IMG/VR virus record: IMGVR_UViG_2869976549_000001
DNA from: a virus
Taxonomy: Duplodnaviria > Heunggongvirae > Uroviricota > Caudoviricetes
Direction: 5' to 3' (one strand)
DNA: 39,073 nucleotides
Positions 8,817 through 9,714 of the stretch are shown piece after piece. The notes under the pieces were generated by a model that had not been told where the DNA came from, ran no database searches, and was given only the letters and a program-made list of their open reading frames with translations. Both the position numbers and the translations under genes were made by a program. The first letter of the stretch is position 1. Every line of letters starts with the position of its first letter.

Positions 8817-9027
8817 GAATCACCTTCCAAGGTCGTTTTGCCTTACGATATTCGTCATAAACTTTGGGGTCGTACTGAAGTTCCCCGCCAGATGCCTCTT
8901 GCAGGCGCATCGCGCGACCTTCAGGAACCAGTTCCCCCCATGCAGCAATGCTTGCCAGCCTAACTCCTGCGGCATTGGCAAGCTTTGTTTTGCTGCCAAA
9001 AAACGCTATAGCATCAATTTTCAACAT
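8800..9027 (-). CDS. ydaS: Cro-type HTH regulator (YdaS-like)
   Basis: 75-aa ORF MLKIDAIAFFGSKTKLANAAGVRLASIAAWGE...; divergent from the repressor gene across a 76-bp operator region. Confidence 0.6.
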   Translation of the reverse strand: MLKIDAIAFFGSKTKLANAAGVRLASIAAWGELVPEGRAMRLQEASGGELQYDPKVYDEYRKAKRPWKVIHENQA

Positions 9028-9035
9028 ATCGAGCT

Positions 9036-9078
9036 CCTTAGATTTTCCTAAGGAAACTAGATCGTAGAGAAACCTAAG
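9036..9078 (-). promoter_or_regulatory. Divergent promoter/operator region with two copies of a 16-bp CTTAGG(A/T)5TCTA-type site (minus-strand orientation)
   Basis: rc of 9036-9053 = CCTTAGGAAAATCTAAGG; rc of 9061-9078 = CTTAGGTTTCTCTACGAT; lies between the ydaS start (9027) and the repressor start (9104). Confidence 0.5.
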
Positions 9079-9103
9079 TCAAGAAAAATTAGAATTCCCT
9101 AAT

Positions 9104-9511
9104 ATGAAAAACGAAACCTTCGGTGCTCGCCTCTTACATAGGCGTAAAAAATTAAAACTGTCTCAGGCCGCATTAGGTAAGCTGGTCAAAGTGGCTCACG
9201 TAACAATTTCTCAATGGGAAAGAGATGAAACACAGCCGGCGGGGAAAAGATTATTCGCACTGAGCCAAGCGCTTCAGTGCTCACCGACTTGGCTTCTTTT
9301 TGGGGATGAAGATAAACAACCAGGCGAACCGATCCCGGATAATCAGCCAGCCATTCTGACAGAAGATCAAAAAGAGTTACTTCAACTGTTCGACGCACTG
9401 CCTGAGTCAGAGCAAAAGGCCCTGTTGTCAGAGATGCGTGCTCGAGTTGAAAATTTCAACAAACTTTTTGAAGAACTACTCAAAGCTCGCAAAAGAAGCG
9501 CAAACAAATAA
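9104..9511 (+). CDS. Prophage repressor, XRE-family HTH (RacR/CI-like)
   Basis: 135-aa ORF with N-terminal HTH (LSQAALGKLVKVAHVTISQWERDE); divergent from the cro-like gene. Confidence 0.7.
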   Translation: MKNETFGARLLHRRKKLKLSQAALGKLVKVAHVTISQWERDETQPAGKRLFALSQALQCSPTWLLFGDEDKQPGEPIPDNQPAILTEDQKELLQLFDALPESEQKALLSEMRARVENFNKLFEELLKARKRSANK

Positions 9512-9584
9512 TCCCCTTTTTTCTCCACACCCTGTAATAAAAAGCACAAACTTTCAAACACTTGTGTTTTTTACATCAAAAAAA

Positions 9585-9636
9585 CTTAGGTTTTTCTACA
9601 CAAAAATCTTGACCGCCCACCTTAGGTTATTCTAAA
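9585..9636 (+). promoter_or_regulatory. Two further copies of the 16-bp operator-like site downstream of the repressor gene
   Basis: CTTAGGTTTTTCTACA (9585-9600) and CTTAGGTTATTCTAAA (9621-9636), 14/16 identical, upstream of the small ORF at 9715. Confidence 0.45.
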
Positions 9637-9714
9637 TTTCATTCATCAAGACACCGCACGGTGTTCTCAGCAAACAGTTCCGCTACCCCGGCGTTAAGGG
9701 GAAATGGGGTCAAC

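Follow-up and report, generated by a model that had tools for sequence, protein, structure and literature searches.

A probable DicA/DicC-type immunity switch with five operator-like palindromes in a decayed lambdoid prophage

Genes of the switch and the repeated sites

The DNA analyzed here is the 39,073-bp virus record IMGVR_UViG_2869976549_000001 (Caudoviricetes), which we refer to as the window, and the element of interest is a repressor gene with a divergent cro-like gene and a set of repeated sites on both sides of the repressor gene. We propose, by homology to characterized systems, that this region is very probably the immunity switch of a lambdoid cryptic prophage of the Qin/P22-immC type, made up of a DicA repressor, a divergently transcribed DicC and five pseudo-palindromic operators. 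An earlier note on this sequence had recognized the architecture of an immunity region with right and left operators (OR/OL), namely a divergent repressor/cro pair, operators between the two genes and a second set downstream of the repressor. Our results support this description, since both proteins pass the family thresholds for DicA and DicC, P22 C2 and P22 Cro are their closest solved relatives, the sites occupy positions equivalent to those in Escherichia coli K-12, and the sites are conserved in homologous loci. The two genes of the switch are the following.

9104-9511, plus strand: dicA-like repressor gene, 135 amino acids (aa)
8800-9027, minus strand: dicC-like gene, the Cro analogue, 75 aa

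The repressor open reading frame (ORF) is intact, as had been stated. The protein scored 237.3 bits against NCBIfam NF007257 DicA (cutoff 101) with residues 1-135 of 135 covered, and it is 62% identical to DicA of K-12. Over residues 2-69 it gives a gapless alignment with the N-terminal domain of P22 C2 (1adr, E=1e-21). A Pfam scan of the repressor found helix-turn-helix families only (HTH_3) and no Peptidase_S24 domain, so that, with only 135 aa, it does not belong to the LexA-like lambda CI type, in which a C-terminal S24 domain carries an Ala-Gly cleavage site. The DicC-like protein scored 153.8 bits against NCBIfam NF007282 DicC (cutoff 130), is 74% identical to K-12 DicC and aligns over residues 1-58 to P22 Cro (1rzs, E=2.5e-7).

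The cro-like gene had been named ydaS-like, and this identification is not borne out: the protein reached 20.4 bits for YdaS_toxin in Pfam, below the cutoff of 30, and 49.7 bits for P22_Cro, above the cutoff of 30.2. On the basis of the DicA and DicC family matches, the preference for P22_Cro over YdaS and the presence of ydfA as the next gene, we assign the locus to the DicA/DicC (Qin, P22-immC-like) switches and not to RacR/YdaS. The proper reference is thus the DicA/DicC locus of Qin instead of the Rac-like prophages that had been suggested for comparison. The genes past dicC, which are ydaT, the replication protein and ydaV, are of the Rac type. The RacR/YdaS/YdaT systems of Rac (K-12) and CP-933P resemble the window in the logic of a repressor, a divergent Cro-like gene and a cII-like YdaT, as well as in the ydaT-ydaU-ydaV type of early-right genes. 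They differ from it in the family of the Cro-like protein, in the window repressor being of the DicA family and in their unrelated operators.

The repeated sites were detected through the 14-mer CTTAGGNNNNTCTA, which has exactly four matches in the window, at 9039-9052 and 9065-9078 on the minus strand and at 9585-9598 and 9621-9634 on the plus strand. Shuffled versions of the window contained 0.07 matches on average, and none of 100 shuffles reached four. When one mismatch was allowed, a fifth copy appeared at 9090-9103 on the minus strand, ending at the ATG of the repressor gene. The four exact copies therefore stand at the places where they had been described, while the total of four does not. 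The consensus that had been given, CTTAGG(T/A)5TCTA, describes a real motif, except that it was called a 16-bp site when its parts add up to 15 (6+5+4) and that its middle is not all T/A. The exact common core is CTTAGG-N4-TCTA, and a C is present in one spacer. We confirmed that the interval between the divergent genes is 76 bp (9028-9103) and that the two downstream copies (9585-9600 and 9621-9636) are identical at 14 of 16 positions.

An unbiased repeat search recovered the same motif family. When both strands are read, the operator unit is a pseudo-palindrome of 16-20 bp, CTTAG-N6-CTAAG. There are five such sites, three of them (O1, O2 and O3) between the divergent genes and two (OL2 and OL1) at the promoter downstream of the repressor gene.

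9035-9054: O1 in its 20-bp form, TCCTTAGATTTTCCTAAGGA (TCCTTAG-ATTTTC-CTAAGGA), a perfect 7-N6-7 inverted repeat
9037-9052: 16-bp core of O1, CTTAG-ATTTTC-CTAAG
9063-9078: O2, CGTAG-AGAAAC-CTAAG, one mismatch to the palindrome, within the -35/-10 spacer of the predicted dicC promoter
9088-9103: O3, ATTAG-AATTCC-CTAAT, a symmetric variant and perfect inverted repeat that abuts the dicA ATG
9585-9600: OL2, CTTAG-GTTTTT-CTACA, directly upstream of a -35 element
9621-9636: OL1, CTTAG-GTTATT-CTAAA, between -35 and -10 and overlapping the -10

The centers of O1, O2 and O3 are spaced by 26 and 25 bp and those of OL2 and OL1 by 36 bp. The central four nucleotides are TTTT in O1, GAAA in O2, ATTC in O3, TTTT in OL2 and TTAT in OL1. 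The opposite orientation described earlier is real. Seen from the repressor gene, the OR and the OL group each point outward; however, this polarity is confined to the inner non-palindromic bases (TTAGG....TCTA), and the sites themselves are palindromic dimer sites. The relaxed palindrome CTTAG-N6-CTAAG with up to two mismatches is not rare in the window, with eight matches against 10.8 expected, and consequently only its clustering and the stricter patterns carry weight. Five of the eight matches lie inside 600 bp, that is, in 1.5% of the window, for which a binomial estimate gives a probability of about 5e-8. All three matches with at most one mismatch are in the immunity region.

Relation of the sites to promoters and to known switches

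The sites are closely associated with two predicted promoters. The dicC promoter was placed by alignment to that of K-12, for which the transcription start comes from 5' rapid amplification of cDNA ends (PMC3441716).

9054-9082, minus strand: predicted dicC promoter, with -35 TTGACT (complement of 9077-9082), a 17-bp spacer and -10 TAGTTT (complement of 9054-9059)
9609-9638, plus strand: promoter equivalent to dicBp, with -35 TTGACC, an 18-bp spacer and -10 TAAATT (9/12 matches in the promoter scan)
9715-9870, plus strand: ydfA-like gene, 51 aa (Pfam DUF1391, E=3.5e-28), the first gene downstream, as in Qin

O1 covers the predicted start of dicC transcription together with the dicC Shine-Dalgarno sequence AAGGAG (complement of 9034-9039), which is embedded in the left arm of the site. 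Inside O3 there is a candidate -10 element of dicA, TAGAAT at 9090-9095, and this box ends 8 nt ahead of the dicA ATG. No Shine-Dalgarno sequence was found upstream of this ATG when 9085-9103 was read, so the dicA mRNA may be leaderless like that of lambda cI from PRM.

The DicA/DicC locus of Qin has reportedly been the subject of Bejar et al. 1986/1988, Yun et al. 2012 and Ragunathan et al. 2023. In K-12, DicA binds to the 20-bp inverted repeat Oc, TTGTTAGTCATAACTAACAA, which overlaps the -10 and the start of dicC; a single A-to-C change in Oc abolishes binding, and DicA at Oc represses dicC and activates dicA (PMC3441716). DicA also represses dicBp, upstream of ydfA, by 22-fold, and the antirepressor Rem relieves this repression by 165-fold (PMC10448788). 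DicA and DicC of K-12 form a bistable switch similar to CI/Cro, and three operator-like sequences per promoter are spoken of (PMC10448788).

The window locus parallels that of K-12 Qin in several respects. A DicA of 135 aa and a DicC of 75-76 aa are transcribed divergently in both, and the distance from the dicA ATG to the center of the main site, O1 or Oc, is 59.5 bp in each. Both dicC promoters have TTGACT as the -35, and both promoters upstream of ydfA have TTGACC with one site ahead of it and a second that extends into the -10. The sequence at the OL2 position in K-12 is GTTAG-CTATAG-CATAC. The leader after the dicB-type promoter is nearly identical, the repressor is without an autocleavage domain, and a gene for a Rem-type antirepressor is located beside hokD. 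Besides the divergence of the two proteins given above, the loci differ in that the half-site is (C)CTTAG in the window and (T)GTTAG in K-12 and that DicA residues 20-22 are SQA and TQR, respectively. From these two differences the window allele is predicted to be heteroimmune to the DicA type of K-12. Downstream of dicC is ydaT here and ydfX in K-12; dicF, dicB and the rest of their operon are missing from the window, cut off by IS600.

P22 immC provides a second reference. In addition to the alignments of the two proteins described above, both regions have OR and OL sets that flank the repressor gene. In an 18-bp frame the window sites share T3-T4-A5 with the operators of P22, the consensus of which is ATTTAAG. 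The dimers of P22 repressor occupy 18-bp sites with contacts at positions 2-7 and 12-17 and an uncontacted center that prefers A/T (PMC4267663), and the window sites would have the same layout of contacted outer bases around an A/T-rich center. In contrast, the window repressor has 135 aa and a short helical C-terminus, whereas C2 has 216 aa and a RecA-sensitive domain (PMC10448788). The half-site sequence is also different, and there are only two clear OL sites here.

Based on these relatives, we suggest how the switch might operate. DicA dimers would bind the operators by a helix-turn-helix like that of P22 C2, touching the outer CTTAG/CTAAG bases and leaving the A/T-rich center uncontacted. 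Since O1 is at the start and the Shine-Dalgarno sequence and O2 is in the -35/-10 spacer, DicA on these two sites would block the dicC promoter and keep the rightward-equivalent lytic operon (dicC-ydaT-replication) off. DicA at O1 would probably stimulate the weak dicA promoter as well, as reported for Oc of K-12. O3, which lies over the candidate dicA -10 and the start codon, would be a likely site for repression of dicA by DicC, for negative autoregulation by excess DicA, or for both. At the promoter on the ydfA side, OL1 and OL2 stand on either side of the -35 and extend over the -10, and DicA bound there would block the leftward-equivalent operon.

Since an autocleavage domain is lacking from the repressor, induction would have to proceed through an antirepressor, for which a Rem homolog is the candidate.

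1546-1833, minus strand: rem-like gene, candidate antirepressor, 95 aa, intact, 68% identical to K-12 Rem (E=2e-34), beside hok/sok

With this homolog, the window keeps a repressor, a Cro-like protein and a candidate antirepressor. The neighboring hok/sok type I toxin-antitoxin locus occupies 2083-2408 on the minus strand, with a sok RNA of 117 bits in Rfam and a hokD-like ORF at 2083-2295.

Conservation, co-variation with the repressor and alternative explanations

Conservation was examined in 98 loci (L001-L098), consisting of K-12, a less decayed prophage that is 99.5% identical to that of the window (L002), 11 genomes of other species, five phage records and 80 viral contigs. Both genes were present and analyzable in 92 of the 98. 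The footprint was computed on the 82 loci with a DicA at least 70% identical to that of the window. In this set the OR half-site columns had a conservation of 0.98, with 23 of 30 invariant and with O2 invariant or almost so; the values were 0.94 for the central spacers of OR and 0.88 for the remaining intergenic columns, 7 of 28 of which were invariant. The OL half-sites likewise scored 0.98, compared with 0.30 for the hypervariable six nucleotides between the -35 and OL1 (9615-9620). The half-sites are thus the best conserved non-coding columns across the 82 related loci.

Four exact copies of the 14-mer, at unchanged offsets, are present in most loci with a DicA of 96% identity or more. Thirteen loci lack it, including every locus with another type of repressor. 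With a DicA identity of no more than 71-74%, the loci of Pantoea, Erwinia, Enterobacter and a Klebsiella phage still have the sites. The palindrome TCCTTAG-N6-CTAAGGA was also sampled in viral contigs, at 120 occurrences. A dicA or dicC homolog was no more than 150 bp away in 48 cases, 46 of which have the spacer [AG]TTTTC; the remaining sampled occurrences have unrelated spacers. The earlier note had named a high density of the motif elsewhere, or its lack of conservation in homologous immunity regions, as findings that would speak against operators. What we found is that homologous immunity regions conserve the motif and that it is not common elsewhere in the window.

The OR sequence of the window is the commonest allele among homologs (21 loci), and its OL sequence recurs unchanged in another locus. 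The PPompW-type prophages of E. coli O157:H7 (GenBank LC567818) have the same immunity type and genes already annotated as dicA and dicC, with a DicA 98% identical, 93.7% DNA identity across the region and all four exact motif copies at the same offsets. They differ from the window in being full-length, with ydaT and the replication genes intact and with an ORF of 357 nt, not ydfA, after the operators. At least 80% of the 1.1-kb region is carried by 229 of 5426 complete E. coli genomes (about 4%). The allele would be a separate immunity type, and it is widespread in prophages of E. coli.

The type of half-site changes with the repressor, as seen when residues 20-22 of DicA are listed with the sites.

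SQA or SQS, in the window and relatives: half-site CTTAG
TQR, in K-12, E. albertii, E. ruysiae, Buttiauxella, Citrobacter, Yersinia and 'phage Rac' of strain 442/2: TGTTAG-N6-CTAACA
SQN, with a different helix 3, in phage HannyBb: ATTGAG-N4-CTCAAT

All loci with SQA or SQS repressors have an O1 of the CTTAG type, and CTTAG prevails at their OL sites as well; all those with TQR repressors have GTTAG. The association is complete in the sample, even for those repressors of the two main groups that have the same helix 3 (AHVTISQW). Residue 22, which is Ala or Ser in one group and Arg in the other, is therefore the best candidate for the residue that reads position 2 of the operator.

Several observations weigh against five DicA operators acting as outlined above. 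We infer every protein-DNA step for this allele, as the mechanism is drawn by homology to P22 C2 and K-12 DicA. In K-12 only Oc bound DicA in vivo and the operator-like Om and Oa did not, with the data not shown there (PMC3441716); the evidence for a DicA site at dicB, of the RegulonDB type, is rated low and its location is rated unknown (PMC7567609). The poorly matching -10 of the predicted dicC promoter, TAGTTT, was not called by a consensus promoter scan. The right half of O2 and the whole of O3 are nearly constant across loci with different DicA and O1 types, and their conservation is confounded with the -35 of the dicC promoter and the TAGAAT -10 candidate of dicA, which they overlap. Moreover, the predicted recognition helix of DicC, RLASIAAW or RLASVAAW, was found with both the CTTAG and the GTTAG types (including L006, L007 and L016) and does not co-vary with the outer bases of O1. 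In view of the unbound Om and Oa, O2 and O3 may be weak, bound only cooperatively, specific for DicC or non-functional.

The unbound Om and Oa, the near-constancy of O3 and of the right half of O2, their overlap with promoter elements and the shared DicC helix favor a reading that we consider possible although on balance unlikely. In it, true DicA operators are limited to O1 and perhaps OL1, and the others are promoter elements or DicC-only sites, similar to the half-site through a common TTAG/CTAA core. What argues for the full set is the quality of the minor sites: O2 is one mismatch from the palindrome and O3 is a perfect inverted repeat, so that both fit the consensus far better than Om and Oa of K-12 fit Oc. 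O2 and OL2 are mirror images at 15 of 16 positions (94% complementary over 16 nt). In addition, the regular 26/25-bp spacing resembles the evenly spaced OR1-3 arrays of lambdoid phages. We retain O2 and O3 as predicted DicA operators, with less confidence than O1, OL1 and OL2 because the minor sites of K-12 were unbound in vivo.

It is far less probable that the repeats are not operators at all and instead reflect an A/T-rich promoter architecture (UP-like elements or curved DNA) or an ancient duplication kept by recent ancestry. The region is indeed A/T-rich, and the overall identity of most close homologs exceeds 96%, which means that much of the conservation is shared ancestry. Against this reading stand half-sites that are fixed next to six hypervariable nucleotides in the same set of loci, the retention of the sites in the Pantoea, Erwinia, Enterobacter and Klebsiella phage loci, and a half-site base that changes, at corresponding positions, along with the type of repressor. 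Furthermore, DicA binding to the homologous site of K-12 is abolished by a point mutation. Binding by another regulator of the module, such as the cII-like YdaT, or by a host factor is to us the least credible explanation of the sites. It draws on Rac, where YdaT binds three 18-bp operators in the equivalent racR-ydaS intergenic region and a YdaT-box inside ydaT (PMC11879457). The reference site ATGATT-N6-AATCAA is unrelated to CTTAG-N6-CTAAG, ydaT is frameshifted in the window, and the operator type co-varies with DicA. When the window was searched with the symmetrized TTGATT-N6-AATCAA, matches were at the level of chance (3 against 2.2 expected) and none was intergenic, and the YdaT explanation was dropped on this result.

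Returning to the DicA/DicC switch, the DicC helix, the right half of O2 and O3 are common to both types, which indicates that it is O1 and the OL sites that track DicA and that the specificity of DicC does not follow the DicA immunity type. This leads to a broader proposal, which we put forward as speculative and rather improbable, that DicA immunity specificity is set largely by residue 22 in helix 2 reading operator position 2 (C or G), with DicC and O3 common to the types. If this were true, a heteroimmune DicA prophage could have its switch flipped by the DicC or Rem of another prophage in the cell. Under that condition the intact DicA/DicC/Rem set retained between IS copies would be a domesticated module still able to sense or exclude related phages.

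The switch system itself was already known, and the current understanding of lambdoid switches is unchanged by these results. Three points are new with respect to the literature searched: for this immunity type, the operators are spelled out as five palindromic sites and related to promoters; OL sites at the dicB-type promoter gain comparative support; and SQA/TQR co-varies with C/G, which predicts which prophages of the DicA type are homoimmune.

Flanking elements, prophage decay and genomic surroundings

Two further elements adjoin the OL sites.

9538-9573, plus strand: inverted repeat forming a hairpin flanked by an A-run and a T-run, between the dicA stop codon and OL2
9645-9714, plus strand: 5' leader of the early-left operon, with the palindrome ACACCGCACGGTGT and a G+C hairpin

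The hairpin at 9538-9573 has a minimum free energy of -9.6 kcal/mol (z = -4.0), and none of 200 shuffles folded as well. A hairpin of other sequence is found at the equivalent place in L092-L094. The hairpin of the window probably terminates dicA transcription before the OL promoter, as a terminator or insulator, and it is possibly a bidirectional terminator that insulates dicA from the early-left promoter. The leader is common to all DicA immunity types and across genera (L001, L003-L018, L092 and L096), even where the first downstream gene differs. RNAalifold gave a helix of only 4 bp with weak covariation, and a search of 9500-9900 against Rfam with E up to 1 had no credible match. The leader could serve as a nut-like or processing signal.

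The prophage of the window is collinear with L002 but decayed, and the earlier note was right that ydaT and the replication gene are broken.

8395-8816, minus strand: ydaT-like pseudogene at the cII position (Pfam YdaT_toxin), frameshifted by a 1-bp deletion at 8778/8779 relative to L002
6948-8209, plus strand: IS600 inside the replication gene, the left bound of the immunity island, with ORFs at 7011-7313 and 7349-8167 (L002 breakpoints 6947/8210)

IS2 and IS600 interrupt the replication gene, and homology to L002 stops at 5571 and 6947 and resumes at 8210. The left IS600 looks like a simple insertion, since the flanking L002 homology overlaps by a few bp. One of its ORFs is identical to an ORF at 339-1157 in which rve domains were found. 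A second IS600, at about 9886-10660, cuts the operon after ydfA, where homology to L002 ends at 9885, and is itself truncated by an element of the IS3 family (10597-11801, minus strand). The two IS600 copies are in the same orientation and bracket an island of 1.7 kb with the 5' end of the replication gene, the ydaT pseudogene, dicC, dicA and ydfA, an arrangement that resembles a composite transposon. Neither DicF nor another relevant RNA was found in the window with Rfam at gathering thresholds.

Both operons under control of the switch are therefore decapitated, by the ydaT frameshift and by IS2 and IS600 in the replication gene on one side and by IS600 after ydfA on the other. As a result the switch controls little beyond itself and could at most give immunity to homoimmune phages. 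The undamaged state of the regulatory core may reflect either selection, for immunity or regulation, or merely recent decay. The example shows that a regulatory core of DicA, DicC, operators and Rem can survive longer than the remainder of its prophage in a pathogen genome rich in IS elements.

Elsewhere in the window, the segment with the lysis genes (11836-16915) is inverted relative to the early region, in comparison with 1-2277 of L002, and is interrupted by IS110-family and IS2 copies. ARAGORN found no tRNA genes in the window, and the cluster of four tRNAs of L002 (2412-2722) is absent. The window also has several further IS copies. At the far end of the prophage, near ybh genes, is a gene for an ipaH-type effector of type III secretion (T3SS; 36252-38015, minus strand) with LRR_TTSS and NEL E3 ligase domains. 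The IS copies, the ipaH E3-ligase gene and the ybh genes together point to a Shigella or enteroinvasive E. coli background. An Rfam match to naRNA4, a nucleoid-associated non-coding RNA derived from REP sequences, was found at 30676-30746 on the plus strand (63 bits, gathering threshold 59.5), downstream of a ybhJ-like gene of the aconitase family.

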